From Vulcanimicrobiota bacterium (GTDB lineage: Bacteria; Vulcanimicrobiota; Vulcanimicrobiia; Eremiobacterales; Eremiobacteraceae), in assembly GCA_963805945.1 (NCBI GenBank), contig CAWDVP010000003.1, forward strand, positions 64,001 through 128,000: 64,000 bases of DNA, read 5' to 3'. This document shows, piece after piece, positions 2,243-58,913 of the stretch. Position 1 is the stretch's first letter; the number at the start of each line of letters is the position of its first letter. The notes under the pieces were generated by a model. That model had not been told where the DNA came from, made no database searches, and saw nothing but the letters and a program-made list of their open reading frames with translations. The translations under genes were made by a program, and so were the position numbers.

Positions 2243-4609
2243 ATGAGTGAGCAACAGTCCGTTCCGGCCGCAGCGCTCGAGCAGGCGCGCGCGGAGATGA
2301 GCAACGGCAATTCGGCGGCAGCGGTCACGCTGGTGCGCCAGGTCGTCGGCCGCCCCGACACGACCCCGGATCAGCTCGCCGCGGCAGCGCGGCTGGGCGT
2401 CAATCTCGGCCTCGAAGAGTCGTTCGGTTGGACGATGCGCGCCGGGCGCCGTCAGATGGAAGCTGGCAGTCTCGAAGACGCGCGGGAGACGTTCACCGCG
2501 GCGCGCGCGCTCGATGAGAAGAACTACGAACCGATCTTCGAGCTTGGCCGCGTCGAGATCGCCGCCGGCAATAAGGCCGAAGGTCTGGGCCGCTTCGCCG
2601 AAGTGCTGCGCAAGTCGAACTACACGTTCGTGCCGGCGCTCTTCGAAGCCGGCTGCGTGTACGAAGCGGACGATCAGGTCGATCAGGCGATCCTCACCTT
2701 CAAGCGCATCGTCGAGCGCGACAAGAGCCATGCGTATGCGTTGGACCATCTCGGCAAGCTGTACAAATCGAAGCAGATGGCGCCGGAAGCGACGGCGTAC
2801 TTCCTGCAGTCGGCCGAAGCCGCGCGCAAGATCATGGACTACGCCTTGGCGCTGCGGTGCGCGCGCGACATCATCGAATTCGATCCGGGCAACGCGCGAG
2901 CGCTCGGGCTCGAAGCGGAGATGCTGCGGATCCTGCCCGAACCGCGCGCGAAAGAAAAAGCGAGCGCCGAACCGGCGCCTGCGCCGGCGCCCAAACCCGC
3001 GCCGCCGCCGCCGCCCGTGCAGCAAGTCGCGGCAGGCGTCGTGCCCCACGACTTCCGGCTCATCGAACAGCAATCCAAGGCCACGCTGGAGCTCGCCCAG
3101 GTCACCGCGGGCGTCGCCGAGGCGTACAAGCAGCGGCTCGCGATCGAGGAGCAGATCAAGGCCGCGCAGGCCACGCTCGAGTCCGTCACGGCGGCGGGCC
3201 AGGGCGCCGATCAAGAGCTCACCGCGATCAAGGCGCAGCTCTACACGGTCGGACAGGCGCGCGTCGCGGAAGAGGCTGCGATGGCAGCGCTCTCCGCGAA
3301 GCTCGACCAGGCGCGCCAAGGCCTGGTGGCCCTCGAGACGCTGCATGAGAGCATCAAGCAGGCGGACGAGCAGCGACAGGGCATCCTCAAGACGATCGAA
3401 CAGCTGAAGACCGAAGCCGCCGCGGTGCAAACGGCAGCGGGCAAAGCGAAGACCGATGCATCATCGGTCGAGAAGGCGCTGACAGAGGTCACCGGCGGTT
3501 TCGGCGCGCTGCGCAAAGAGGCGGAGACCGCGAAGGCGGTGCTCGACGATGCCAAGACGCAAGCGGAGAAGGCGAAGGCCGACGCCGCCGCGGCAGAGGC
3601 TGCCGTCGTCAAGGCGCGCGAGAAGTTCGAGGCGTCTCGGACCGCGGTCGACGCGGCCGAGCAGCGCATCATCGAGGCCGCTGCGCACGCCAACGCGGTC
3701 GGCAGCGACGCGGCCGTGACCATCGCCGGCATCGCAGACGTGGAGACCTCGGTCGGCGCCGCGCTGGCGGCGCAGAAGACGATAGAAGATGCGATCGGTC
3801 AGCTGCGCGCGCTCGCGGTGGCGCTCACAGAGCGGCGCAAGCAGACAGAGGCGGCGCTGACCCAGATCGCCGGCATCGGGGAAACGCAAGCGACCGGACT
3901 CAACGAAGCCGACATCGCCAAGCTGGAAGCCGGTCTCGCCGCAGCGATCGAAAAAGCAGCGGTCGCCGCCCACAAGCCGCCGCAGCCGGCCGCACCCGCC
4001 GCGCCGGCAGCCGCAACCCCCGCGCCGCCGCCCGTCGCTGCCGCTGCGGCAAAACCGAACGGCGTGTCGCAAGCACCCGCGCCGCCGCCCGCACCGGCGA
4101 AGGCGAAGGCGGATGCCGGCAAGCCGCCCGAAAAAGCTGCGGAAAAGCCTGCCGACAAGGCTGTCGTGCCCGAGCGCAGCTCGGGTTCCCCCAAAGCCGA
4201 CGACAATTCGCCCGGCGGCGTCTTCGCCCGCGGTTCAGCCGCGCTCGAAGCGAAGAAGCCGCAAGAAGCGCTCAAGATCTTCGAAGCGCTGGCCTCGAAT
4301 CCGGAGTTCGCGGTGCTCGCGCAGACCGCCATCGGCCGCTGCTACGCGCAGATGGGCCAGTTCGACGAGGCCATCGCGCGCTATTCGAAGGCGCTCGAGA
4401 CGCCAGGGCATCCGGAAGAGCAGTATCACGAAGCGCTCTACTACATGTCCGCCGCGCACGAGAGCCGTGACGACGCGGAATCGCGCGAGCTTGCGGTGTG
4501 GGCGCTCGAGGAGATCGTCGCGGCCAACCCGCGCTATCGCGACGTCGCCGCGCGTATGGAAGCGCTCAAGTCGAAAGCGGGCAAGGCCGCCGCCGGCGGA
4601 GCGGCATAA
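2243..4609 (+). CDS. TPR protein with long central coiled coil, Pro/Ala linker and C-terminal TPRs
   Basis: TPR-like helices at both ends, Ala/Glu/Lys heptad-rich middle, no signal peptide. Confidence 0.75.
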   Translation: MSEQQSVPAAALEQARAEMSNGNSAAAVTLVRQVVGRPDTTPDQLAAAARLGVNLGLEESFGWTMRAGRRQMEAGSLEDARETFTAARALDEKNYEPIFELGRVEIAAGNKAEGLGRFAEVLRKSNYTFVPALFEAGCVYEADDQVDQAILTFKRIVERDKSHAYALDHLGKLYKSKQMAPEATAYFLQSAEAARKIMDYALALRCARDIIEFDPGNARALGLEAEMLRILPEPRAKEKASAEPAPAPAPKPAPPPPPVQQVAAGVVPHDFRLIEQQSKATLELAQVTAGVAEAYKQRLAIEEQIKAAQATLESVTAAGQGADQELTAIKAQLYTVGQARVAEEAAMAALSAKLDQARQGLVALETLHESIKQADEQRQGILKTIEQLKTEAAAVQTAAGKAKTDASSVEKALTEVTGGFGALRKEAETAKAVLDDAKTQAEKAKADAAAAEAAVVKAREKFEASRTAVDAAEQRIIEAAAHANAVGSDAAVTIAGIADVETSVGAALAAQKTIEDAIGQLRALAVALTERRKQTEAALTQIAGIGETQATGLNEADIAKLEAGLAAAIEKAAVAAHKPPQPAAPAAPAAATPAPPPVAAAAAKPNGVSQAPAPPPAPAKAKADAGKPPEKAAEKPADKAVVPERSSGSPKADDNSPGGVFARGSAALEAKKPQEALKIFEALASNPEFAVLAQTAIGRCYAQMGQFDEAIARYSKALETPGHPEEQYHEALYYMSAAHESRDDAESRELAVWALEEIVAANPRYRDVAARMEALKSKAGKAAAGGAA

Positions 4610-4612
4610 CGC

Positions 4613-6289
4613 GTGACGAACGCCAATCGCAAGCGTCAGCTCGCCGTCGAGACGGCGGCCAAGGAAGGCCTGCGGGCCTCCGTGCCGCTGTACATCGCCG
4701 CGGCGGAGGCGTTCGCACAAGAGGATCGTCCTGCGCAAGGTGTCGAGCTGCTCGGCGAGCTGCTCAACGCCAAAGAGCGCCGACGCGGGCTGTTCGGCCG
4801 CGCAGAGAAGAACCCGCTCGGCACCGAGCGGCTGCGCGTCGCCACCAAGTACGCCGAACTCGCGCGGACCACATCGCCGACCGAAGATTCGCTCGAGATG
4901 CTCGAGGATCTCTCCATCGAGTTCTCCGAGAGCCCGGCCATCCGGCGCGCCAACGCCGACGGACTGCGCAACGCCGGCTATGCCGCCGACGCCATCGAAG
5001 AATATCAATACTGCGCGAGGCTCGAGCCCGAGGACGGCGACATCGAGGTGCGCATGAGCGAGCTGTTCGCCGCGCTCGGCCGCACGGACGAAGCGATCGA
5101 CAGCTTGCGCAAGGGCATCGCGCAACACGCGGCGAGCGGCGAGTACGAACAAGTCGCCGACCGGGCGATGCGTTTCATCGATCTCAACCCCGATGACCTC
5201 GAGGACGTCTACATGTCGCTCGAGCTGCTGCCGGGCGAAGTGCTCAAACGCCACGTGCCCTCGCTCGATCACATCGGCATCCTCGTGCGCCGCGATCCGA
5301 GCAAGGGAGACGAGTGGCGCGCCCGCATGGAGCAGCGCCTCGTCGATCTGTACACGCTCGTGCTCGAGATCGACGGCCGCAACGCGGCGGCGCGCCGCGG
5401 CATCAACGTGCTCGGCCAGCAGTATATGGCGGACGTCGAAGTGCGCCTCAAAGCCGCCGCGCAGAAGGCGCAAGCGGCGGCGACGCCCGCTCCCGCACCT
5501 GCGACGCCCACCCCCGAGACGCCAGCGCCGAAGCCGGCCGTCGCGTCGGCTCCAGCGACGCCCGCGCCCGCAGCAGCGACGGTCGCGCCCGCATCTGCGA
5601 CACCCGCACCCGCACCTGCGACACCTGCGCCCGCGACGCCCGCGCCGACGCCTCCAGCCACGCCGGCCGCAGCCGCAGCGCCGCCGCCCGCAGCGACTCC
5701 ATACAAACCCGCGCCGGCTGCCGCATCACCCGAGCTGCGCTCGGGCACTACGGCGCCGCCGCCACCCGCCCCGCCGCCACCGGCCGCGCCCGCGCGAGCC
5801 GAAGCCGCAGAGGTCCACGCGCCCGAGCTGGTCGAGAAGTCTCCAGGAGAGCTGGTCGCTGAAGAGACGCCCGTCGTCGCCGCGGCCGTACCGGTCGCCG
5901 CGGCCGGAGACGCAGGGGCTCAAACGCCGGCAGCCGCGCCCGCTTCGGGCAAAGGTCTGTACGCCTTCGCCTTGCGCAAAGCGCAAGAGCAATTCGACGC
6001 CGGGAGCTACGACGCGGCCGCGCAGGCGTGCGATCGTATCCTCAAGCGCGGCGACATCCCCGAAGTGCTGCAGCTGCTCATGGCCTGCTACGTCAAGCTC
6101 GAGCGCAAACCGGACGCGGTCGCGGCCGGCTTGCGTTACGCCGAGTCGCTGGCCGCTGAGAGTCCCGCCAAGGCGCTTGAAGCGCTCACCGAGATGATCA
6201 AGACGCTGCCCGATGCCGCGCTCGTGCTACGCCGCTCGCAGCTGCTCACGAACATGCGCCAAGTGGAGTTCGCTGGAAAAAAAGGCTGA
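4613..6289 (+). CDS. TPR protein with Pro/Ala/Thr-rich linker
   Basis: TPR-like N- and C-terminal regions; PAPAT repeats at about 5480-5810; starts 3 nt after the previous stop. Confidence 0.7.
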   Translation: MTNANRKRQLAVETAAKEGLRASVPLYIAAAEAFAQEDRPAQGVELLGELLNAKERRRGLFGRAEKNPLGTERLRVATKYAELARTTSPTEDSLEMLEDLSIEFSESPAIRRANADGLRNAGYAADAIEEYQYCARLEPEDGDIEVRMSELFAALGRTDEAIDSLRKGIAQHAASGEYEQVADRAMRFIDLNPDDLEDVYMSLELLPGEVLKRHVPSLDHIGILVRRDPSKGDEWRARMEQRLVDLYTLVLEIDGRNAAARRGINVLGQQYMADVEVRLKAAAQKAQAAATPAPAPATPTPETPAPKPAVASAPATPAPAAATVAPASATPAPAPATPAPATPAPTPPATPAAAAAPPPAATPYKPAPAAASPELRSGTTAPPPPAPPPPAAPARAEAAEVHAPELVEKSPGELVAEETPVVAAAVPVAAAGDAGAQTPAAAPASGKGLYAFALRKAQEQFDAGSYDAAAQACDRILKRGDIPEVLQLLMACYVKLERKPDAVAAGLRYAESLAAESPAKALEALTEMIKTLPDAALVLRRSQLLTNMRQVEFAGKKG

Positions 6290-14127: not shown

Positions 14128-15024
14128 TCAGGGCAGGCGGACGCGCGCCTTGTTCCGGTCGAAGACGACGAGTCCGTCGCGTTCGAGATCGTCGAGCAGT
14201 TGGGCGAGCCACGCGATGTCGGTTTTGCCAAAGTCGGCCTTCACCTGCGGCCCCAGCCGCAGCAGGCTCATGCTCGGGCGCCGCGTGAGCGCCCGGATCG
14301 CCGCGCCGCGGTGCTGCCGTCGCGAACCGCGATACGCGCGCTGACGCGGTCGTCGCGCGACGCGCGCTCGTCGCTGGCGCTGCGCGTCGGACAGGGCCAC
14401 CCAGGCGCATGCGCGCTGCGCTGGGCACCCGCCGCACAGCGGCGTCGCACGGCAGAAGAGCGCGCCGATATCCATGAGCGCGTGGTTCCACGCAGCCGCG
14501 TCGCGCGGCAGCGCCGCGTGCGCCAGCCCCCACGCCTTGCGATCGCCGGCGTCGTCGACCGCGAGCAGCGCGCGCGACAGCACACGCCGGATGTTCACGT
14601 CGACGGCCGCCTCTGCGGCGCCGAAGGCGAAGCTCGCGACCGCGGCCGCGGTGTAGCGGCCGACGCCGGGCAGTCCGCGCAGCGCGGCGACGTCGCGCGG
14701 CACGCGGCCGCTGTGCTCGCGCATGATGGCGCGCGCGCATTCCCACAAGCGCCGCGCGCGCGAGTTATAGCCGAGCCCCGACCACGCGTGGAGCACGTCG
14801 CGCAGCGGGGCGGCGGCGAGCCGCGCGATGGTCGGGAAACGCGCGAGGAACTCGCGGTACTTGGGGATGACGCGCGCGACCTGCGTCTGCTGCAGCATGA
14901 ACTCGGAGACGAGGATGGCGTATGGGTCGCGGGTGCGCCGCCATGGCAGGTCACGCCCGTGGCGGGCGTACCAGCCGAGGATCGACTTGTGTAGGGGCCG
15001 ATCTTTAGATCGGCCCGGAGCCAA
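14128..15024 (-). CDS. mutY: A/G-specific adenine glycosylase, short form without MutT-like domain
   Basis: WYARHGRDLPWR, SEFMLQQTQV, GLGYNSRARRL, LPGVGRYTA, Cys cluster; nearest plausible start is TTG at 15024. Confidence 0.88.
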   Translation of the reverse strand: MAPGRSKDRPLHKSILGWYARHGRDLPWRRTRDPYAILVSEFMLQQTQVARVIPKYREFLARFPTIARLAAAPLRDVLHAWSGLGYNSRARRLWECARAIMREHSGRVPRDVAALRGLPGVGRYTAAAVASFAFGAAEAAVDVNIRRVLSRALLAVDDAGDRKAWGLAHAALPRDAAAWNHALMDIGALFCRATPLCGGCPAQRACAWVALSDAQRQRRARVARRPRQRAYRGSRRQHRGAAIRALTRRPSMSLLRLGPQVKADFGKTDIAWLAQLLDDLERDGLVVFDRNKARVRLP

Positions 15025-15060
15025 CGCAGACGAGGGTCGATCTAAAGATCGACCCGCTAC
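14991..15060. repeat. inverted REP doublet (REPIN-like), family A
   Basis: GTAGGGGCCGATCTTTAGATCGGCCC at 14991-15016 and the reverse complement of GTAGCGGGTCGATCTTTAGATCGACCC at 15034-15060. Confidence 0.9.
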
Positions 15061-15070
15061 ATGGGTGTTC

Positions 15071-15888: not shown

Positions 15889-15929
15889 CCCGAGCTTCGC
15901 TCGGACGGTCGAATAAATTCGACCGCTAC
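15889..15929 (-). repeat. composite hairpins: family C (CCCGAGCTTCGCTCGGAC) abutting family B REP (GTAGCGGTCGAATTTATTCGACCG)
   Basis: family C 18-mer recurs reverse-complemented at 58895-58912; family B recurs at 25317, 29708, 37630 and 46574. Confidence 0.75.
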
Positions 15930-24614: not shown

Positions 24615-26964
24615 CAATCGCGCCGCCGTGGTGCGCACGATCCTCGCCGTGCTCTTCGGCATCGTGCTCGTCGTGCTGCTCGTCGCGGCTTGGTTCGTGC
24701 GCTCGTCGCTTCCCAAATTGGACGGCAAGTTCTCCGTCGCCGGCCTATCCGCGCCGGTCTATATCCGGCGTGACGAGCGCGGCACGCCGCATATCGAAGC
24801 GCAGACCATCGACGACGCGTTCTTCGCCGAGGGATTCGCGTGCGGGCAAGACCGGCTGTGGCAGATGGACACGGTGCGCCGGCGCGCGGAAGGCCGCGTG
24901 TCGGAGATCGTCGGACCCGCGACGCTCAAGAAGGACGAATACATCCGGACGCTCGGGCTGCCGGAAGCGGCCGAAGCCGACGTGCGCCTCCTCGACGCAC
25001 GCACGCGCGTCGCTCTGGAGGCGTATGCCGCCGGAGTGAATGCGGCCGCGGCGGCGCGACCATTGCCGCTCGAGTTCAGGCTGCTCGGCTACGGCTGGCA
25101 GCCCTGGACGGTCAAAGACTCGGTGGCCATCGGCAAGTTGATGTCGCAGACGCTGGACGACGACTGGTATTATCCCCAGCTGCGTGCGGCGTTCGTCCTC
25201 AAGTTCGGCCCGGCGGCGGCGGCCGCGCTCACGGACATGCAGATCCCGCACCTCGAGCGCTACATCCCGGGCTACGCTCCGAAACCCCTGAACCACACGC
25301 CCATCGCCGCCGTCGTTGAGCGGTCGAATCTATTCGACCGTCCAGTGGATCTCGCACAGCACGAGCCAGACACCGGTTCGAACAATTGGATCGTCGCAGG
25401 ACGCCGCACGTCGACCGGACGGCCGGTGCTCTCCAACGACACGCACCTCGGCACGACGCTTCCCAGCACCTGGTGGACCGCCGACGTCCATGGGGGCGCG
25501 TACCACGTCGCAGGCTTCACCTTGCCGGGGATCGCCGGCGTCGTGATCGGCCACAACGACCACATAGCGTGGGGCATCACCAGCGCGACCGAGGCCGTGC
25601 AAGACCTCTACATCGAGCGCTTCCGCAGCGCTACCTCCGACGAGTATCTCGCGAACGGCAGCTGGCGTAGAGCGCAGCATCGCACGGAGCGCATCGGCGT
25701 GCTCGGGCATCCTGACGTCATCCTCGACGTCCTCGTCACCCGGCACGGACCGATCGTCAAGCGCGAGGGCGCGCGCGGACTTGCGCTCGCATGGACCGCT
25801 TTGCGCGGGGGCAGATCTTCTAGGGCGCTGTTGGGCATCCAAACGGCGGCGGACTATCAGCAGTTCCGCGCTGCGCTCGCGGATTGGCTCAGCCCCGTCT
25901 CCAATTTCGGCTACGCGGATACCGCGGGGCACATCGGCTATCAGGATGCCGGCGCCGTGCCGCTGCGCGCGGACGGCGACGGCTCGCTGCCGGTGGAAGG
26001 CCAAGACGACCGCTTCGCATGGAAGGGCGATGTGCCGTACGACACGCTGCCGCACGCGCTCGATCCGCCGGGCGGCGTCCTCGCGACCGCCAACAACGCG
26101 CTCGTGCCGCCGTCGTTCCGGCCGAGTCTCTCACCGTATTTCGAGCCGCCATTCCGCGTCCATCGCATCTACGATCGCCTGCGCGCCATGCGCGGTGCGA
26201 CGCCGGAGGCGATCGGCTCGGTGCAAGGCGACATCTACGACTATCCGCATCAGCAGCTCGCTCGGGCGACGGAGCGCGCGCTCGCCACGTCGAGCGACCC
26301 GGCCATGCAGCGCATCGCGCGGCAGCTGCACGGGTGGGATGGCATGATGGACAGACGCTCTGGGATCCCTACGTTCATGATGGCAGAAGAAGCGGCGCTG
26401 GTGCGCGATCTGTACGAGCCGCGCATGGGGACCGCCGTCTTCGAGAGCTATGGGGCGAACTATTGGCCGATCGTGCCGATCCTGCGCGCGCTCGAGGGCG
26501 ACGACCGGCTGCGGTCGATCGGGCTGTCGCGCGGCTCGCTCACGAGCGCGATCGCTCGTGCCGCGGGCGAAGCAGCGACGGCCGTCAGCGCCACCGGGCC
26601 GCGCGGCCTCGATGGAGCGCGGGCGTGGGGGGTGGTCAACGCCGCGCTCTACCAGCATCCGCTGTCGGTGAAATGGCCGCTCGGCATATTGAGCGTGCCG
26701 CCCGTGCCGCAGCCGGGCAGCGGCTTCGCGGTCTACGCGGGCAAGCCGGAGCACGGCCCGTCGGAGCGGCTCGTCGTCGACATGTCGGATTTCGACAACA
26801 CCTCGATGCTGCTCACCCTCGGCGAGTCAGGCCAGTACAGCGATCCGAATTATGACGACGAGCTCGAGGATTTCGCGCACGTGCGCTGGTCGCCGATGCC
26901 GTTCTCGCAACAGGCCGTGCTAGCGGCGGCGAAGCACACGCTCGTGCTCGAGCCAGGGCCCTAG
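24595..26964 (+). CDS. penicillin acylase family Ntn-hydrolase (peptidase S45)
   Basis: N-terminal TM, RDERGTPHI, QDRLWQMD, GSNNW nucleophile, NDTHL, GESGQ. Confidence 0.9.
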   Translation: MSITTRSNRAAVVRTILAVLFGIVLVVLLVAAWFVRSSLPKLDGKFSVAGLSAPVYIRRDERGTPHIEAQTIDDAFFAEGFACGQDRLWQMDTVRRRAEGRVSEIVGPATLKKDEYIRTLGLPEAAEADVRLLDARTRVALEAYAAGVNAAAAARPLPLEFRLLGYGWQPWTVKDSVAIGKLMSQTLDDDWYYPQLRAAFVLKFGPAAAAALTDMQIPHLERYIPGYAPKPLNHTPIAAVVERSNLFDRPVDLAQHEPDTGSNNWIVAGRRTSTGRPVLSNDTHLGTTLPSTWWTADVHGGAYHVAGFTLPGIAGVVIGHNDHIAWGITSATEAVQDLYIERFRSATSDEYLANGSWRRAQHRTERIGVLGHPDVILDVLVTRHGPIVKREGARGLALAWTALRGGRSSRALLGIQTAADYQQFRAALADWLSPVSNFGYADTAGHIGYQDAGAVPLRADGDGSLPVEGQDDRFAWKGDVPYDTLPHALDPPGGVLATANNALVPPSFRPSLSPYFEPPFRVHRIYDRLRAMRGATPEAIGSVQGDIYDYPHQQLARATERALATSSDPAMQRIARQLHGWDGMMDRRSGIPTFMMAEEAALVRDLYEPRMGTAVFESYGANYWPIVPILRALEGDDRLRSIGLSRGSLTSAIARAAGEAATAVSATGPRGLDGARAWGVVNAALYQHPLSVKWPLGILSVPPVPQPGSGFAVYAGKPEHGPSERLVVDMSDFDNTSMLLTLGESGQYSDPNYDDELEDFAHVRWSPMPFSQQAVLAAAKHTLVLEPGP
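25317..25340 (+). repeat. family B REP-like hairpin inside the acylase CDS
   Basis: TGAGCGGTCGAATCTATTCGACCG, translated as part of ERSNLFDR. Confidence 0.75.
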
Positions 26965-27790: not shown

Positions 27791-28647
27791 TCGAGCGCGT
27801 CGCGGTCATCGGCGCCGGCACGATGGGCAACGGCATCGCCCATAGTCTGGCGCTTGGCGACTATTCCGTCACGCTGATCGACGCGGCTCGGGTCGGACTC
27901 GAACGCGGGCTGGCGACGATCGACGCCAACCTGCGAGGCGGGGTCGAGCGCGGCAAGCTCACCGCGCAGGCTGCGGCGGAGGCGCGCGCCCGCATCGCCT
28001 CGTCCGATGATCTGGCGAGCGCTGCGAGCGCGCAATTGGTGATCGAAGCGGTGCCCGAGGATCTCGGGCTCAAGCACACGGTGTTCCAGGAGCTCGAACA
28101 GGCCTGTCCGCCCGACACGATCTTCGCCACCAACACCTCCGCGCTGTCGATCACCGAGATCGCCTCCGGCCTCAAAGATCCTTCGCGCGTGATCGGCATG
28201 CATTACTTCAACCCGGCGCACATCATGAAGCTCGTGGAGATCGTGCGCGGTTTGGAGACCTCCAAGCGCGCGGTCGAGGTCGCGACCGAGGTCGCGGTGC
28301 GCAGCGGCAAAGAGACGGTGCTCATCGACGAGGCGCCGGGCTTCGCGACGAGCCGCATCAACGCGCTCATAGGCAACGAGGCCTTCTACATGCTGCAGGA
28401 GGGCGTCGCGTCGGCGCGCGACATCGACAAGGCCCTCAAACTTGGGCTCAACCATCCGATGGGGCCGTTCGAGATGATCGATCTCGTCGGCCTCGACACG
28501 CGACTCCAAGTGCTGGAATACCTGCATAAGATGCTGGGCGAGAAGTACCGGCCATGCCCGCTGCTGGTGAAGTACGTCAAGGCCGGCCGCCTCGGGCGCA
28601 AGGTCGGCCGCGGCGTCTACGAGTACCCAGATATGAAACCTCTGTAG
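27787..28647 (+). CDS. 3-hydroxyacyl-CoA dehydrogenase (PaaH/Hbd-like)
   Basis: VIGAGTMGNGIA, IEAVPE, TNTS, GMHYFNP, HPMGPF, GRLGRKVGRGVY. Confidence 0.92.
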   Translation: MIERVAVIGAGTMGNGIAHSLALGDYSVTLIDAARVGLERGLATIDANLRGGVERGKLTAQAAAEARARIASSDDLASAASAQLVIEAVPEDLGLKHTVFQELEQACPPDTIFATNTSALSITEIASGLKDPSRVIGMHYFNPAHIMKLVEIVRGLETSKRAVEVATEVAVRSGKETVLIDEAPGFATSRINALIGNEAFYMLQEGVASARDIDKALKLGLNHPMGPFEMIDLVGLDTRLQVLEYLHKMLGEKYRPCPLLVKYVKAGRLGRKVGRGVYEYPDMKPL

Positions 28648-28702
28648 GGGTCGACTTTAGGTCGACCCAACGAGAAGGTCCGACCTAAAGGTCGGACCCT
28701 AC
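28644..28702. repeat. inverted REP doublet, family A
   Basis: GTAGGGGTCGACTTTAGGTCGACCC at 28644-28668 and the reverse complement of GTAGGGTCCGACCTTTAGGTCGGACC at 28677-28702. Confidence 0.9.
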
Positions 28703-29697
28703 ATGTGCTTGTAGCGCTTGATCCCGTCGGCAGAGTCGACGGTGATCTCGCCCCGCAGACGCAAGTACTCCAAGTGCGCCACGATCTCGACCAGCGCGAA
28801 GCGCACCTCGTGCGTCGAGAGCTTGTCGCCCCAGAAGTGCTGCACGATGTCAAAACCGGTCGCGCCGCCGCCGCCGGCGGCGACGACGCGCCCCGTGACG
28901 CCTTCCAACCGCTGTTGGTGATGCGCGCGGAACTGGCCCACGCGCGCAGGCAGCGTCGCGTAGGCCTCGCCGTGCCCGGGCAGTACGGTGTATCCCGCTT
29001 CCTTGTCGACACGCCCGAGCGACCACAGGAAATCCTCGAGCGGATTGGGGCGGCATTCAGGATACAGGCCGATGTTGGGCGTGATGTTCGGCAGCAGTTG
29101 ATCGCCGCAGAAGATCACCTTCGCGTCGTCGTCGATCAAGATGTAATGGAAATCGCTGTGGCCGGGCGTCCAAAGGGCGCGCAGCCGGCGCAGCCCGGCC
29201 TGGACGACGTCGCCATCGGCGATCGGCTCGAAGCGCTCCGGCAACGACACGACGCTGCGCAGCATGCCGACCGCCTTGACGATGCCCTCGGCGACTTCGC
29301 CGCTCGCGCCGTGCTCGCGCGCGTACGAGCTCCAATCGCTGAGCGGCTCGGCGCCCCATATGTAGCGCGCGCGCCGCTCCTCGTCCGGCATCAAAAAGAT
29401 GCGCGAGCCCGCGCGCGCGCGGCGGCCGGACATGCCGATGTGGTCGGGGTGCATATGGGTGACGTAGACGCGTTCGATGTCTTTTTCGGCGATGCCGATC
29501 GCCGTGAGCGCTGCATCGAAGGCGGCGCGACCGTCGGGCGTGTCGATGCCGGCGTCGATGAGCGTGTAGCCATCCGAATTGCGCAGCAGATAGAGATTGA
29601 CCTCGCGCAGGCGGAACGGCAACGGGATGCGGATGCGCCAGAGATCGTCGGCGAGCTTTTCGGGCGGTCGAGGCTTGGACGCGGGGTCTTGCGTCAT
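28699..29697 (-). CDS. MBL-fold metallo-hydrolase
   Basis: THMHPDHIG, TPGHS, GDQLL, PGHG; start MTQDP overlaps the paaX stop. Confidence 0.88.
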   Translation of the reverse strand: MTQDPASKPRPPEKLADDLWRIRIPLPFRLREVNLYLLRNSDGYTLIDAGIDTPDGRAAFDAALTAIGIAEKDIERVYVTHMHPDHIGMSGRRARAGSRIFLMPDEERRARYIWGAEPLSDWSSYAREHGASGEVAEGIVKAVGMLRSVVSLPERFEPIADGDVVQAGLRRLRALWTPGHSDFHYILIDDDAKVIFCGDQLLPNITPNIGLYPECRPNPLEDFLWSLGRVDKEAGYTVLPGHGEAYATLPARVGQFRAHHQQRLEGVTGRVVAAGGGGATGFDIVQHFWGDKLSTHEVRFALVEIVAHLEYLRLRGEITVDSADGIKRYKHM

Positions 29698-30593
29698 CGC
29701 GTCGACCCGGTCGAATGAATTCGACCGCTCCATGCGCTCTGCAGGGCGGACGCGCTGAAGAAACGCAACGCCCCATCGGTGAGCAAGCCGTGATAGTCGT
29801 CGAAGAGCGCGCGGGTTCGCGCGCCGATCCAATCGCGCGGCAGCAGCTCAGCGGGCAGATCAGGATCGACGAAAGGCAGACGGCGGAAGTCGTGCGTGAG
29901 GGCGAAGCGGTGCACGAAGGCCGCCGCGTCGGGCAGCGCGCGCTTGCGCCGGCGCAATGTGTCCCTGCGATAGAGCGGCGCGTAGTTCTTGATGAAAGAG
30001 AGATGCTGGCGTGCGATGCCCGGCATATCCCAACAGCGGCGCGCCATCTCCTGCGGCGTCACCGGGCCGTCGAAACGCGCGGTGAAGACGCGCGCGAAGT
30101 CGGCGACCCCATGGTCGGCGACGAGCGCCTTCGCTTCGGCCGCGACATCGCGCGGGCTCACATACGTGCCGCCGCCCAGCGGACCGAAGCCGAGCCACGC
30201 CAACTGCTTGCGCAGGCGATCGCGGTGCGCGCGCTTGACTTCCGGAATGGTGTAGGTCAGGACGCACCACGCGCCGTTCCAGCGCTGCGTGCGCGGTTCG
30301 TAGATGCGCCGCGTCCCCGCCTGGATGAGCGAACGGCCGCGCTGCGTGAGCGCGTAGAACGAGCGGTTGCTCTGGCGGCGTGCGGCGATCCAGCCGTCCC
30401 GCGCCAGCCGAGCCACCGCGGATCGCACCGCGCCTTCCGAGATGCCGAGGCGCGCGCCGAGCAGCACGAGGCTGCCCAACCACAGATCGACGCCGCGCGG
30501 ATACGCGTAGTCGCCGTAGAGCGTGAAGAGCATCGAGCGCGGCCGCAACGGGAACAGTCCCGGAAACGGTTCGCGGGGGGTCATCGCCGGCAT
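29694..30593 (-). CDS. paaX: PaaX family transcriptional regulator
   Basis: RSMLFTLYGDY, AVRSAVARL, WNGAW, WLGFG, DPDLPAELLPRDW. Confidence 0.9.
   Translation of the reverse strand: MPAMTPREPFPGLFPLRPRSMLFTLYGDYAYPRGVDLWLGSLVLLGARLGISEGAVRSAVARLARDGWIAARRQSNRSFYALTQRGRSLIQAGTRRIYEPRTQRWNGAWCVLTYTIPEVKRAHRDRLRKQLAWLGFGPLGGGTYVSPRDVAAEAKALVADHGVADFARVFTARFDGPVTPQEMARRCWDMPGIARQHLSFIKNYAPLYRRDTLRRRKRALPDAAAFVHRFALTHDFRRLPFVDPDLPAELLPRDWIGARTRALFDDYHGLLTDGALRFFSASALQSAWSGRIHSTGSTR
29708..29731 (-). repeat. family B REP-like hairpin in the paaX 3' end
   Basis: GGAGCGGTCGAATTCATTCGACCG on the minus strand. Confidence 0.75.
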
Positions 30594-30677: not shown

Positions 30678-31790
30678 ATGGCACGTATCAAGACCTTCGA
30701 GGATTGGGTGGAAGTCTTCAAGATCTGGCAAAAAGACCTCGACGTCGATCCGGCGCAGATCGACCGTATCCTCGGCGGCTACACGCTCGAGGCCAAGTAC
30801 GCCGAGCCGAGCAGCGACGAGATCGAGTTCGGCGAGTTCGCCGGCCAGCGGAAGTGGGAGAAGGTCTTGGAGATCCCAGACCAGCGCATGCGCGACGCCG
30901 TGCTCACCATGATCATCTATCAGGGAGACACCGAGTTCGCGTCCAACGAGCAGCAGCGCAAACTGCTGGCGACCGCGCCGTCGGAGTACGACTTGTATTC
31001 GATCGCGCGCGTGTTCATCGAGGAGACGCGCCACGGCTATCAGATGTGCCATCTGCTCGTCAACCATTTCGGCAACGACGGGCGCATCGAGGCCGAGAAG
31101 ATGCTCGAGCGGCGCGCCGACCAGGGCACGCGCCTACTCAACGCCTTCAACACCCCGGTCAAGCACTGGCTCGATCTCTTCGCCTACCAGAACTACATGG
31201 ATCGCGACGGCAAGTTCCAGCTGCAGATGCTCTCGCACTCCGGCTTCCGGCCGCTCTCGATGAGCATGGGGCCGATGCTGCGCGAGGAGTCGTTCCATCT
31301 GGGCACCGGGCTCACCGGGCTCAAGCGCGTCGCCAAGGCCGGCGTCGTGCCGGTGAAGATCCAGCAGAAGTACCACAACAAGTGGCTGTCCGGGTCGCTC
31401 GACCTGTTCGGCAACGATCACTCCTCGAGCGCGGTGTGGGCCTACATCTGGGGCATCAAGGGCCGGCCCGAGGAAGACAAAGAGACCGACGACGCGGACA
31501 AGGATCGCCTCAACGACTACGCGCGCCGCGCGTACTACGCGGAGTGCTCCAAACTCGTCGACCAGGTCAACGCGATCATCCCCGGCGAGGAGAAGCTGTA
31601 CGTGGCCGACATCCGCTTCAACCGCCACATCGGCGAATTCGCGGGCAAGCCGTATTCGGTGGACGGGCGCCTGCTCGACCGGGACCAATACGAAGACTAT
31701 CTCAAAGAAGTGCTGCCGAACGACGATGACGAAAAGGTGCTCGAGGAATTGTTCAAGCGCGAGGATTGGGTAGCCCCCAAAGCCGCCTGA
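30678..31790 (+). CDS. boxB: BoxB-like diiron aromatic-CoA epoxidase, short form
   Basis: QGDTEFASNEQQ, APSEYD, EETRH, DRDGKFQL and EESFH match BoxB diiron motifs as I recall them. Confidence 0.75.
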   Translation: MARIKTFEDWVEVFKIWQKDLDVDPAQIDRILGGYTLEAKYAEPSSDEIEFGEFAGQRKWEKVLEIPDQRMRDAVLTMIIYQGDTEFASNEQQRKLLATAPSEYDLYSIARVFIEETRHGYQMCHLLVNHFGNDGRIEAEKMLERRADQGTRLLNAFNTPVKHWLDLFAYQNYMDRDGKFQLQMLSHSGFRPLSMSMGPMLREESFHLGTGLTGLKRVAKAGVVPVKIQQKYHNKWLSGSLDLFGNDHSSSAVWAYIWGIKGRPEEDKETDDADKDRLNDYARRAYYAECSKLVDQVNAIIPGEEKLYVADIRFNRHIGEFAGKPYSVDGRLLDRDQYEDYLKEVLPNDDDEKVLEELFKREDWVAPKAA

Positions 31791-31791
31791 T

Positions 31792-31817
31792 GTAGGGGCC
31801 GATCTTCAGATCGGCCC
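31792..31817 (+). repeat. family A REP
   Basis: GTAGGGGCCGATCTTCAGATCGGCCC. Confidence 0.9.
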
Positions 31818-37621: not shown

Positions 37622-37629
37622 GCCACCGA

Positions 37630-37653
37630 CGGTCGAATACATTCGACCGCTCC
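37630..37653 (-). repeat. family B REP-like hairpin
   Basis: GGAGCGGTCGAATGTATTCGACCG between convergent genes. Confidence 0.78.
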
Positions 37654-46510: not shown

Positions 46511-46590
46511 GTAGGGGCCGACCTTAGGTCGGCCCTTTCTTTTTCATGTAGGGGCCGATCTTCAGATCGGCCCTCGAATTTATTCGACCG
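46511..46590 (+). repeat. tandem family A REPs plus a truncated family B hairpin
   Basis: REPs at 46511-46535 and 46548-46573; TCGAATTTATTCGACCG at 46574-46590. Confidence 0.88.
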
Positions 46591-48751: not shown

Positions 48752-48777
48752 GGGCCGATCTAAAGATCGGCCCCTAC
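48752..48777 (-). repeat. family A REP
   Basis: reverse complement of GTAGGGGCCGATCTTTAGATCGGCCC. Confidence 0.9.
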
Positions 48778-48793
48778 ATGGCTGGCGAGCGCG

Positions 48794-54761: not shown

Positions 54762-55531
54762 ATGGCCGCTCAGTTCGACGCCGTCAAAGAAGCGACCGAC
54801 GCGTTCTCGTTGCTGTTCAAGGGGCGCAACTGGCTCTTGGGTGCGCCGACCGTCGCCGGGCTCTTCATCGTCATGGTCATCGTCGGCGTCGTGCTGGTGT
54901 TGGCGATCGGGCCGGATATCTTCCGCCAGATCCTGGGCGGCTCGCAGACGCCCGAGATCTCGCCGGGCGGATCATCGTGTTCGTCGTGTCGATAACGCTC
55001 GGCGTCCTGCTCGCCACCGCCGTGAGCATCTTCACCTACGCGTGGACGCTGGTGGCCGCGGAGCCTGTATGGCTCGGGCAAGAACCGGCCTGGGACCGGG
55101 GCTTCAATCGGGCGGCGAAAAAACTGCTCAGCCTGGCGGTTTACGTGATCCTCGTCGGCCTCATGTCGATCGTGTCCATCATCACCATCGTCGGTCCGAT
55201 CATCATCGCGTTCTTCACGATGTACGCGCCCGCACGCATCCTGTTCGCTGACAGGACGGCGACGGACGCGATCGGCGATTCGTTCAAGATGGCGAGCGAG
55301 AACATCACGCCGACGATGATCCTCGTGCTGGCGTTCATCGTCGTCTACATCATCGGGTTCGTCGTCGTCATGGCCTTGGGGTGGATCCCGCTCGTCGGCA
55401 TCGTCGTCCAGTTGGGGTTCCAATGGCTGTTCAGCGCGTATATCGCGCTCGCCATCGTGCGCTTCTACGACATCCTCAACACGTCAAGCGGCGCGCCGCC
55501 GTTCTCGATCATCCCCGAGACGAACGTCTAG
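54762..55531 (+). CDS. multi-TM membrane protein (frameshift near 54970), paralogue of 58914..59684
   Basis: MAAQFDAVKEATDAFSLLF...NW matches the paralogue; continues in ORF 54977..55531. Confidence 0.7.
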
Positions 55532-55549
55532 GGGCCTCATCGGTCCGAT

Positions 55550-56180
55550 GTAAGGGCCGATCTTTAGATCGGCCCTAAGCCTGTCCATGTAGGGGCCGAT
55601 CTTTAGATCGGCCCTCTCTAGACGAGCTCCCGCGACGCCTTGATAAAGAGCGAGTCACCCAGCGCCCGCCTCGCCTCAAGGCGTTTGACTATCACGCAGC
55701 TCGTTCATACTTCGTCACGTGGTGCGTGCGCGAACGAAGGCCTGTATTCCGGGATGCTTTGCCGGTTAACATCGCACAGGATACGATTCTCGACTTTAGA
55801 CAACGAGCTTGGTACGCTCTCTATGCTTACTGTGTGATGCCTGACCACATACATGTTGTCATGAAGTCACTGGGCGGTGAGAGACCTCTGTCGCGCATCG
55901 TGGCCACGCTCAAGGCGAGCATCGCGCATCGTTGCCGTTTGGCGGGAGTTTCTCTTGAGTGGCAGCACGGCTACTATGATCGAATCGTGCGAGAGTACGA
56001 ACGGTCGGACGAGTTCGTCAAGTACGTCCTGCTCAATCCCGTGCGAGCAGGGCTCGTCGTGCGCTTCGAAGACTATCCATATGCCGGCCTGGTCGATGCG
56101 TGGCACTAGGAGCCGACCTAAAGGTCGGCCCCTACACACGGCGTGCAAAAAAAGGGGCCGATCTAAAGATCGGCCCCTAC
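55550..56180 (+). mobile_element. REPtron: RAYT flanked by REPs at 55550-55575 and 55589-55614 (+), 56110-56135 and 56155-56180 (-)
   Basis: four GTAG/GTAA-hairpin REPs symmetrically flanking an HUH Y1 transposase. Confidence 0.88.
55621..56109 (+). CDS. rayT: REP-associated tyrosine transposase (TnpA-REP, IS200/IS605 Y1 family); start uncertain
   Basis: in-frame RLKAFDY...YFVTWC upstream of GTG 55726; MPDHIH (HUH), WQHGYYDRIVR, YVLLNPVRAGLV. Confidence 0.88.
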   Translation, partial: DELPRRLDKERVTQRPPRLKAFDYHAARSYFVTWCVRERRPVFRDALPVNIAQDTILDFRQRAWYALYAYCVMPDHIHVVMKSLGGERPLSRIVATLKASIAHRCRLAGVSLEWQHGYYDRIVREYERSDEFVKYVLLNPVRAGLVVRFEDYPYAGLVDAWH

Positions 56181-56195
56181 AGACGTCGGCTGGTG

Positions 56196-57101
56196 CTAGG
56201 CGGAGTGCTCCTTCAACATCTGGTGGATGCGGCCCGTGATGGCAAGCGAATCATCCCACTTGCGCTGCCAGAGGTTGCGCCCGAAGATCAGGCCGGTGAC
56301 GCCTGCCTCCATCGCCACACGCGCCTTGCGCAGCAGATCGTCGTCGCCCATCTTGCTGCCGCCCGAGAGCAGCACCAGCGTGCGCCCCGCCGACTTGACG
56401 ACCTTCGCGATCGCCTCTTCCTCGGTGACCTTCAAGGTGTTGTAGGGCTTGGGCTGTTTGTCGAGATCGCCGCTGACCTTGGGCTCGTTGAGCTTCACGA
56501 TATCCGCGCCCATCTCGCACGCCATGCGCGCGGCATAGTCGACCGCGTAGAGCGAATCCTGGCCGCCCTTCTCCTTGATGGCGGAACCGCGTGGATACGA
56601 CCACACGACGAGCGGCATGCCGTAGCGATCGCAATCTCGGCGCACCGCATCGAGCTGCGCGATGTCCTCGGCCTGGCGCGGGCTGCCTACGTAGAGCGTG
56701 TAGCCGACCGCATCGGCGCCGATGCGCACCGCGTCCTCGACGCCTGACGTCATCGGGGAGAAAGGGGCGTCGTCGCTGGGCACGTTGGTCTTGCCGTTGA
56801 CCTTGAGCAGCAGCGGTATCTTGCCGGCGTACGGACCGAAGTATTTCTTCGCCAGCCCTATATGGCAGGCGACCCCCGAATAGTTGCCGTCGATCGCCAA
56901 GCGGAAGATGTAGTCCATGTCGATGCTCTCGGGGTTGTCGAAGAAGTCGACCGGACCATGTTCGATGCCCTGGTCGATCGGCAGCATGAGCAGCGTGCCG
57001 TTGGCGGGCCCGTATTCGTACAGCATCCGATGAAGCCGGGCGTGTTTGCCGGGCGGGAGCCGTAGATCGGAGAGCGTGGGCCGGCGCACCTTCGTCAACA
57101 T
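56196..57101 (-). CDS. fbaB: class I fructose-bisphosphate aldolase (DhnA type)
   Basis: LPIDQGIEHGP, AVGYTLYVGS, WSYPRG, GADIVK, SGGSK, FGRN. Confidence 0.88.
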   Translation of the reverse strand: MLTKVRRPTLSDLRLPPGKHARLHRMLYEYGPANGTLLMLPIDQGIEHGPVDFFDNPESIDMDYIFRLAIDGNYSGVACHIGLAKKYFGPYAGKIPLLLKVNGKTNVPSDDAPFSPMTSGVEDAVRIGADAVGYTLYVGSPRQAEDIAQLDAVRRDCDRYGMPLVVWSYPRGSAIKEKGGQDSLYAVDYAARMACEMGADIVKLNEPKVSGDLDKQPKPYNTLKVTEEEAIAKVVKSAGRTLVLLSGGSKMGDDDLLRKARVAMEAGVTGLIFGRNLWQRKWDDSLAITGRIHQMLKEHSA

Positions 57102-58877: not shown

Positions 58878-58894
58878 CGTTCGTCCTCTATAGT

Positions 58895-58912
58895 GTCCGA
58901 GCGAAGCTCGGG
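58895..58912 (+). repeat. family C hairpin
   Basis: GTCCGAGCGAAGCTCGGG, exact reverse complement of 15889-15906. Confidence 0.65.
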
Positions 58913-58913
58913 T

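Follow-up and report, generated by a model that had tools for sequence, protein, structure and literature searches.

What is the short gene that lies among four hairpin repeats at positions 55550 to 56180 of this stretch of DNA, and do the gene and the hairpins belong together? The stretch, referred to here as the window, is the whole of positions 64,001 to 128,000 (64,000 nucleotides) of contig CAWDVP010000003.1 in assembly GCA_963805945.1, from a Vulcanimicrobiota bacterium of the family Eremiobacteraceae. An initial annotation, made from the letters alone, had taken the locus to be a complete REPtron, in which an HUH/Y1 transposase is flanked symmetrically by GTAG-type repetitive extragenic palindromic (REP) hairpins. 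Our analysis indicates that the locus is very probably a REPtron, consisting of a single-copy gene for a REP-associated tyrosine transposase (RAYT, or TnpAREP) bracketed by cognate REP hairpins of one family, here called family A, of which about 176 copies are dispersed in the genome. The source genome (G000) measures 2.31 Mb in 8 contigs, with 66% G+C. We compared it with 40 relatives, of which 24 belong to the same family (6 of them to the same genus) and 16 to the rest of the class, and with a wider sample of 301 genomes from the phylum. Four unpublished genomes (G010, G013, G016, and G252) are included in the tallies of relatives, G016 also stands in the RAYT tree, and G010, G013, and G016 stand in the FNR tree; no conclusion is drawn from these genomes alone.

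At the locus, two plus-strand family A copies stand upstream of the gene and two minus-strand copies downstream, with hairpin cores at 55550-55575 and 55589-55614 (plus) and at 56110-56135 and 56155-56180 (minus). The arms of this inverted 2+2 layout are complementary at up to 27 of 27 positions. The symmetrical flanking described in the initial annotation is thus present, and the conserved head of the hairpins is ATGTAG, longer than the GTAG originally named. The features of the locus, in order along the window, are as follows.

55528 to 55531: left junction CTAG, whose last three letters are the stop codon (TAG) of the membrane-protein gene upstream (54977-55531)
55548 to 55575, plus strand: REP 1, family A, head ATGTAA
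55587 to 55614, plus strand: REP 2, family A, head ATGTAG, an exact copy of the commonest variant in the genome
55621 to 56109, plus strand: RAYT reading frame (TnpAREP-like HUH/Y1 nuclease), open from 55579
55640 to 55642, plus strand: TTG in the +1 frame, a candidate for the true start of the RAYT; it would read MIKSESP..., which resembles the N-termini of relatives
55846 to 55854, plus strand: HUH motif His-Ile-His, residues 76-78 of the 162-residue frame
56023 to 56040, plus strand: tyrosine motif YVLLNP, containing Y135
56110 to 56137, minus strand: REP 3, family A, inverted, directly after the RAYT stop codon
56155 to 56182, minus strand: REP 4, family A, inverted, complementary to REP 2 at 27 of 27 positions
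56196 to 56199: right junction CTAG, whose first three letters (CTA) form the stop codon of a minus-strand aldolase gene

The reading frame between the hairpins matched the Pfam Y1_Tnp model at 33.2 bits (cut-off, 23) and the NCBIfam equivalog model NF047646 (REP_Tyr_transpos) at 99.8 bits (cut-off, 80), and its score with the IS200 model NF033573 was 22.9 bits, below the cut-off of 55. Among solved structures, the best sequence match was Escherichia coli TnpAREP (4ER8; E = 1.4e-8), followed by the ISDra2 transposase at an E value of ~1e-3. An AlphaFold model built from a 17-sequence alignment had a predicted local distance difference test (pLDDT) score of 87.9 and a predicted template modeling (pTM) score of 0.82; its top fold match was again 4er8_A (E = 1.4e-9; template modeling [TM] score, 0.70), compared with TM scores of ~0.55 for IS200/IS605 transposases. 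The alignment comprises the RAYT and 16 database relatives that are at most 60% identical, several of them named RayT by their source. Its invariant columns include H76, H78, Y135, N139, P140, V141, R142, A143, and G144; W114, Q115, and D120 are nearly invariant, and R124 is also conserved. Y135 aligned with residue 115 of chain 4ER8_A, which we take to be the catalytic tyrosine. The closest named RAYT record (L001) is 52% identical and comes from a metagenome-assembled genome labeled "Proteobacteria bacterium." For the neighboring FNR-type reductase, a protein atlas search returned only mixed clusters of Bacillota, Pseudomonadota, and Actinomycetota. A comparative study gives Y---NP as the signature of class 2 (TnpAREP) and Y---Q as that of IS200, and lists W94, Q95, E100/D, H101/R, and R104 as the positions that contact GTAG (PMC6006769); the counterparts of these positions in the present protein are W114, Q115, D120, R121, and R124. 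By its sequence and its predicted fold, the gene between the hairpins is a RAYT of the HUH/Y1 type. It is also single copy, with one match in the 82% complete genome and no remnants at E ≤ 0.01 in searches with 27 RAYT queries.

We next counted the hairpins across the genome, a count that the initial annotation had proposed along with the remark that confinement of the repeats to this region would contradict it. The degenerate 26-mer, at up to two mismatches, occurs 138 times in the source genome, with balanced strands (62 versus 76), and the reversed pattern does not occur. Up to five substitutions give 172 loci, with none in the reversed genome. An nhmmer profile made from the genome copies finds 176 at E ≤ 0.1, and its best E value in the reversed genome is 3.1. 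Copies lie on all 8 contigs, at 2.4 to 16.8 per 100 kb, so the family is not confined to this region, and the REP type that flanks the RAYT is one dispersed at high copy number in the same genome. Within the window, the genome-built profile recovers exactly the 13 family A copies that had been listed, and no others; three of them (15034, 28644, and 46511) are variants with a 1-base insertion or deletion. Searching the window with a 22-mer core at up to three mismatches returned 17 strand hits, which fall at 10 places; 100 shuffles returned none. In addition to the four copies at the RAYT, the window contains the following.

14989 to 15061: family A dimer with heads outside (14991 plus, 15034 minus)
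28642 to 28704: family A dimer with heads outside (28644 plus, 28677 minus)
31790 to 31817, plus strand: family A singleton directly after a stop codon
32681 to 32708, plus strand: family A singleton
46511 to 46573, plus strand: family A pair in direct orientation (46511 and 46548)
48752 to 48779, minus strand: family A singleton between convergent genes

The conserved unit is AT-GTAG-GGGCCGAYC-TTYA-GRTCGGCCC-(T), comprising a head, a 9-bp stem, and a TTYA loop, with nothing conserved beyond it. GTAG is present in 149 of the 172 copies and a perfect 9-bp stem in 155, and 66 match the degenerate consensus exactly. Pairing is maintained in 1,523 of 1,548 stem cells (98%), compared with a mean of 1,397 and a maximum of 1,414 when the 3' letters were shuffled in 1,000 trials. 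Stem pair 11-18 is CG in 75 copies, TA in 73, AT in 13, and GC in 5; stem pair 7-22 is CG in 126, TA in 34, GC in 3, and AT in 2, and nearly all combinations of the variable stem pairs and the loop T/C occur. The compensatory stem changes pointed out earlier are therefore real, with the four variants then cited occurring in 46, 35, 17, and 1 copies. The accompanying description of the system as structure selected holds insofar as pairing is kept through changes on both sides, but selection is only one reading of it: the same counts would result if the structure were selected, if the copies descended from founders that already formed hairpins, or if each arm served to correct its partner.

The 176 copies group into 142 loci, arranged as follows.

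Singletons: 109 loci
Dimers with heads outside: 23 loci
Dimers with heads inside: 0 loci
Direct pairs: 9 loci
Trimer: 1 locus

Gene placement was scored with a crude gene caller of our own (2244 genes; 84% coding and 15.6% non-coding), on which the following figures depend. A total of 160 of the 176 copies lie outside called genes (118 fully and 42 mostly), compared with the 15.6% of the DNA that is non-coding. Family A thus has the properties of a GTAG-type REP, namely, an imperfect palindrome of 20 to 40 bases with a 5' GTAG and an extragenic location. Convergent gene ends are favored, accounting for 66 of 160 contexts versus 176 of 1,276 intergenic spaces overall. Singletons between codirectional genes are in the sense of the upstream gene in 55 of 65 cases (binomial P ≈ 1e-8), and these sense-oriented copies lie within ~25 bases of the stop codon. 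The bias also holds on the locally minor strand (15 of 16). We considered whether REP strand follows local GC skew, and this was ruled out (44/51 versus 39/42).

The distribution of RAYTs and hairpins among relatives links the two components. A RAYT was found in 13 of the 24 same-family genomes, in none of the 6 same-genus genomes, and in none of the 16 other genomes of the class; in the phylum sample, 18 genomes scored above the RAYT cut-off, 14 of them in this family, including the source genome. Across 41 genomes, family A at up to two mismatches occurs 138 times in G000, once in G008, 28 times in G021, and not in the other 38, among them all six same-genus genomes. The G021 matches are a related form with the head GTAGC, the type that flanks that genome's own RAYT. 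The hairpin type flanking the RAYT of G011 has 235 copies in G011, 1 in G013, and none in 23 others, including G000. Family A thus occurs only where its RAYT occurs, and the G011 and G021 types behave likewise. We scanned 11 RAYT loci for hairpins, that of G000 and those of 10 relatives. Nine of the 10 relatives' RAYTs are bracketed on both sides by hairpins of their own, head first upstream and inverted downstream; the tenth (L061 in G017) has hairpins downstream only. Stems and heads vary among genomes, the heads being GTAG, GAAG, and GGGA or AGGA, so these several RAYT-hairpin pairs constitute natural material on hairpin recognition by RAYTs. Long, regular hairpin arrays flank the RAYTs at L058 (G014), L062 (G023), L063 (G009), and L064 (G008); L058 has up to 4 hairpins upstream and 6 downstream at a spacing of 35 to 36 bases, and L062 has 8 upstream. 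In a RAYT phylogeny, an analysis that the initial annotation had suggested, the RAYT of G000 groups with that of G011 with moderate support (86/81). The G+C content of the gene (0.56, versus 0.65 in its flanks) was considered as a sign of recent transfer and set aside: RAYTs are at 0.51 to 0.58 and their flanks at 0.61 to 0.65 at all 11 loci, so the low value is no sign of recent import.

How did the unit come to lie at this site? In G000, 664 bases (55532-56195) separate two CTAGs and contain only the four REPs and the RAYT. The flanking genes are convergent, with the membrane-protein stop codon at 55529-55531 and the aldolase stop codon at 56196-56198 (minus strand). Five relatives keep both flanking genes, and all five are without the insert: in G001 and G002, a single CTAG holds the stop codons of both genes, and in G003, G004, and G011, the two genes are 36 to 44 bases apart. 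G005 and G006 are without the membrane-protein gene at this site, and the aldolase end is bare. That gene has paralogues nearby (L065, 7448-7921) and an extra tandem copy in G004 (L068/L072). The RAYT and hairpins of G011 likewise form an insert of ~690 bases between two convergent genes, and in G000 the corresponding genes overlap in a CTAG (C1:444346-444349), leaving that site empty. Species placement was taken from a single-gene FNR tree, in which G000 is the first branch of the genus (96/95), the six others group together (90/81), and G011 lies next to the genus but outside it. Given these placements of G000 and G011, one gain at this site on the branch of G000 is more parsimonious than two clean losses; the inserted RAYT may either have moved within the genome or have been acquired from a different cell.

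Individual hairpins also have empty sites. We aligned the window with the syntenic 66 to 68 kb of G002 and G005, a presence/absence comparison that had been proposed for orthologous sites. Copies 31792 and 48752 are clean insertions of ~30 to 50 bases beside stop codons, and both sites are empty in the two relatives. At the gene-end spacer that contains the pair at 46511-46573, G002 and G005 have a shorter sequence unrelated to that of G000. G005 has nothing in place of the dimer at 14991-15059; in the same spacer, G002 has a copy of a second hairpin family, family B (C1, near 962614-962638). Another spacer is occupied in G002 by a third family, family C, and in G005 by family B. Gene-end spacers look like landing sites shared by the hairpin families. 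The CTAG on both sides of the 664-base insert was considered as a target-site duplication and rejected, as no consistent duplication was seen at the G011 insert or at four singleton and dimer sites. The cutting sites of E. coli TnpAREP are at C^T, as in GGCC^TACA (PMC3333891), and both junctions of the insert read C^TAG; by analogy, the CTAG pair may reflect C^T cutting.

If the E. coli enzyme is a guide, the RAYT would bind the folded hairpin with its 5' GTAG on single-stranded DNA, cleave at neighboring C^T positions with formation of a 5'-phosphotyrosine link, and join strands again. REP units would in this way be copied or moved in trans to new extragenic sites, and such spread would have given rise to the ~176 family A copies, found only in G000 among the genomes searched. 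The REP-RAYT-REP unit would itself have arrived on G000's own branch as the 664-base insertion between convergent genes.

Several observations weigh against reading the locus as a REPtron with a working RAYT, the first of which concerns the start of the gene. From 55579 to 56109, the RAYT frame contains no internal stop codon, but no in-frame ATG, GTG, or TTG precedes GTG 55726, and by reading of the sequence there is no CTG or ATH either. A start at GTG 55726 would delete the first beta strand (model residues 29-36). The RAYTs of relatives begin 4 to 9 residues ahead of a conserved PPRL, and the +1-frame MIKSESP from TTG 55640 is similar to the VIRTSRPPRL of one relative; one extra base before ~55670, for example in the C run, would join this TTG to the RAYT frame. 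Assemblies often lose a base in a C or A run, and from the sequence we suspect a 1-base indel near the RAYT start, either an assembly error or a real frameshift. The gene may accordingly be a pseudogene or carry an assembly indel, and since the assembled frame has no start codon, the RAYT is described here only as a putatively active enzyme. For the same reason, the word "complete" in the initial annotation fits the architecture of the locus but not the RAYT frame as assembled. No slippery heptamer for programmed frameshifting was seen by eye at the RAYT start. Four soil-metagenome contig sets, in which 5 to 11% of words were present, contained nothing that covers the RAYT body (55637-56105), and no excision product was seen in the soil contigs; the sets with matches included no RNA data. 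The G000 assembly is, moreover, only 82% complete.

Other soil contigs bear on the flanks. Some that are 90 to 95% alike cover the ends of the flanking genes and the adjacent outer REP (55291-55575 and 56151-56373) and end there, which implies that close strains also have REPs at both gene ends. One 256-base contig is identical over 56130-56385. Contig "joints" that skip 483 to 540 bases were considered as excision products and rejected on account of other letters between the two REPs; we interpret them as REP dimers that lie at other places in related genomes.

It is possible, if doubtful, that the system is a fossil, in which a genuine 1-base frameshift close to the start of the RAYT has inactivated it and the hairpins are young or kept by the host, no longer replicating. 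The absence of an in-frame start codon and the resemblance of the +1-frame N-terminus to that of a relative fit such a history, as does the in-frame TAG in the damaged-looking RAYT of another member of the family, G020 (C191:3600-3983, L059). There is also a precedent in Neisseria gonorrhoeae, for which RAYT frameshifts followed by decay of REP doublets forming hairpins (REPINs) are described (10.1101/2021.07.10.451892). Against it, the rest of the G000 frame is open with every catalytic and conserved residue in place; family A is undecayed, with perfect stems in 155 of 172 copies and an exact consensus in 66; and the indel itself is of a kind that assemblies commonly introduce. A second damaged-looking RAYT, in G017 (C4:15063-15350, L100), gave a two-piece match with a score below the cut-off.

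The remaining difficulties for the REPtron reading come from hairpins that have no RAYT and from where hairpins lie. The commonest 16-mers of G000 belong to three hairpin families, A, B, and C. Family B has the form G[G/T]AG-CGGTCGAA-TTYA-TTCGACCG and is similar to the hairpin flanking the RAYTs of a different genus in this bacterial family. Its copies in the window, and its copy numbers at up to two mismatches, are as follows.

Window, family B: 15905-15929, 25317-25341, 29707-29731, and 37629-37653
G000: 111 copies
G002: 81 copies
G005: 137 copies
G006: 123 copies
G001: 2 copies
G003: 2 copies
G004: 0 copies
34 other relatives: 0 copies

None of the six congeners has an NF047646 match or a Pfam Y1_Tnp match at E ≤ 0.1, so the 81 to 137 family B copies in three of them stand without a Y1 transposase at that threshold. 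Perfect stems in G000 are about as frequent in family B (145/179) as in family A (155/172). Intact, numerous hairpins alone are therefore not proof of a working resident RAYT. Two of the four window copies of family B also occupy the corresponding sites in G005, the other two are not shared, and one site common to G002 and G005 is missing in G000. Family B shows strong strand asymmetry in these two relatives, whose genomes are near complete, with 108 forward versus 29 reverse copies in G005 and 17 versus 64 in G002. Family C has the form GTAGTG-CCCGAGC-GMAG-GCTCGGG and the same GTAGTG head as the REP of G011. We counted 54 copies in G000 and 13 in G002, and 23 other genomes had none; no family C RAYT was found in the G000 assembly. 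Across the genus, families B and C include both copies that are shared in place and copies that are not. In the window, family C is found at three places.

4163 to 4186: family C
5728 to 5751: family C
58890 to 58913: family C

These families raise the question of whether the hairpins belong chiefly to the host, for example as RNA stem-loops at 3' ends or as terminator-like structures, and are kept or spread without the RAYT, which would merely lie among them at the same collecting sites. The sense bias of the singletons within ~25 bases of the stop codon (55/65) fits selection for RNA 3' hairpins as well as it fits transposition, and the enrichment at convergent ends (66/160 versus 176/1,276), the success of families B and C without a Y1 transposase, and the site occupied by family A in G000 and by family B in G002 point in the same direction. 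We nonetheless consider this explanation improbable. Family A is restricted to where its RAYT occurs, and the G011 and G021 types show the same pattern; 9 of the 10 relatives' RAYTs are flanked on both sides by a genome-populating type or by hairpins of their own; and the layout of head and hairpin is what the E. coli enzyme is reported to need for binding and cutting (PMC3333891). Rfam, furthermore, gave no match at gathering score anywhere in the window. Far less credible still is an ordinary IS200/IS605-type insertion sequence with REP-like ends by chance, the case that the initial annotation had named as fatal to its proposal: comparison with seven relatives shows the 664-base unit to be a clean insertion, the sister RAYT of G011 occupies another site, empty in G000, and the fold is common to IS200/IS605 transposases, but the NF033573 score is below its cut-off, the tyrosine motif has the class 2 form Y---NP instead of Y---Q (PMC6006769), the gene is single copy, 664 bases leave no room for tnpB, and the "ends" occur ~170 times on their own.

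Having weighed these alternatives, we retain the reading of the locus as a REPtron, and a more tentative proposal concerns how REPtrons behave in this bacterial family. The reciprocal clean empty sites of the G000 and G011 inserts (660 to 690 bases) make the unit appear to move whole. Conceivably, then, the REPtron is here a small mobile unit that is relocated or exchanged whole and not a fixed, domesticated gene, and families B and C, numerous without a Y1 transposase, are either selected by the host or moved by an agent other than a RAYT. Whole-unit movement, if true, would be contrary to the common picture of RAYTs as immobile and vertically inherited. RAYTs are described as single-copy, vertically inherited genes that stay in one and the same extragenic space (PMC5581495; 10.1101/2021.07.10.451892), and REPtrons are reported not to seem mobile as a unit (PMC3333891). 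The intact state of families B and C without a Y1 transposase bears on the claim that REPs decay after RAYT loss, which the accounts of REPINs in PMC5581495 and 10.1101/2021.07.10.451892 report.

Finally, we compared the locus with known systems. The initial annotation had called REP-RAYT systems best characterized in Proteobacteria and the present lineage poorly studied. The first point is true, but GTAG REPs have already been described in more than 80 species of 8 phyla, with REPtrons in most hosts, in a survey that describes 24 GTAG families (PMC3733652). Family A resembles this superfamily (Di Nocera et al. 2013) in its GTAG head, in a stem within the 6- to 13-bp range, and in a short loop readable as TY. 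As described there, dimers with heads outside are favored (23 versus 0 with heads inside in family A), and copies lie in tandem or convergent intergenic regions, downstream of coding regions (PMC3733652).

The closest match in sequence and fold is the REPtron of E. coli K-12 (TnpAREP, group 2/subclass 2.2, 4ER8), the system in which the term REPtron was defined and GTAG-dependent binding and C^T cutting were shown (PMC3333891). The two systems have in common the HUH motif, WQ, and the tyrosine in Y---NP, a single-copy gene, inverted REP brackets with a 5' GTAG at the hairpin foot, and dispersal of the same REPs outside genes, which in E. coli takes the form of REP and bacterial interspersed mosaic elements (BIMEs). 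They differ in that the proteins are only 22% identical, and E100 and H101 of the E. coli enzyme are D120 and R121 here, a change reported for subclasses 2.5 and 2.7 (PMC6006769). In addition, the E. coli enzyme needs a bulge in its REP, whereas family A has a short, near-perfect 9-bp stem without one; the elements of BIMEs are paired, whereas family A consists mainly of singletons (109/142 loci); and the E. coli REPtron is reported to be immobile as a unit, whereas that of G000 is an insertion with empty sites in relatives.

The RAYTs associated with short REPs in Pseudomonas, Xanthomonas, and Stenotrophomonas (Bertels group 3/Quentin subclass 2.5), compared by description only, are similar in their length of ~150 residues, in their DH-h-H, WQ, and Y---NP motifs, in short REPs with a head 0 to 2 bases from the stem, and in the covariation of REP and RAYT types between genomes. 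They differ in the tyrosine motif, given as YI[VI]ANP in the published table versus YVLLNP in G000, and in the prevalence of REPINs, the inverted doublets that form a long hairpin; in G000 such doublets are a minority, with 23 heads-outside dimers against 109 singletons among 142 loci. IS200/IS605 elements (IS608 and ISDra2) share the HUH/Y1 fold, and in them too the transposase lies between subterminal hairpins, at whose foot there is a short guide-like head. They are characterized by Y---Q, multiple near-identical copies, and often tnpB, whereas the RAYT unit has Y---NP, falls below the cut-off of the IS200 model, and is present in one copy that its hairpins far outnumber.

Taken together, the locus is one more member of the well-described REP/RAYT systems, from an uncultured lineage, and introduces no new principle. 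Its central features fit the published descriptions of these systems, and it differs from them in the dominance of singletons, in the reciprocal empty sites, and in the thriving orphan families.

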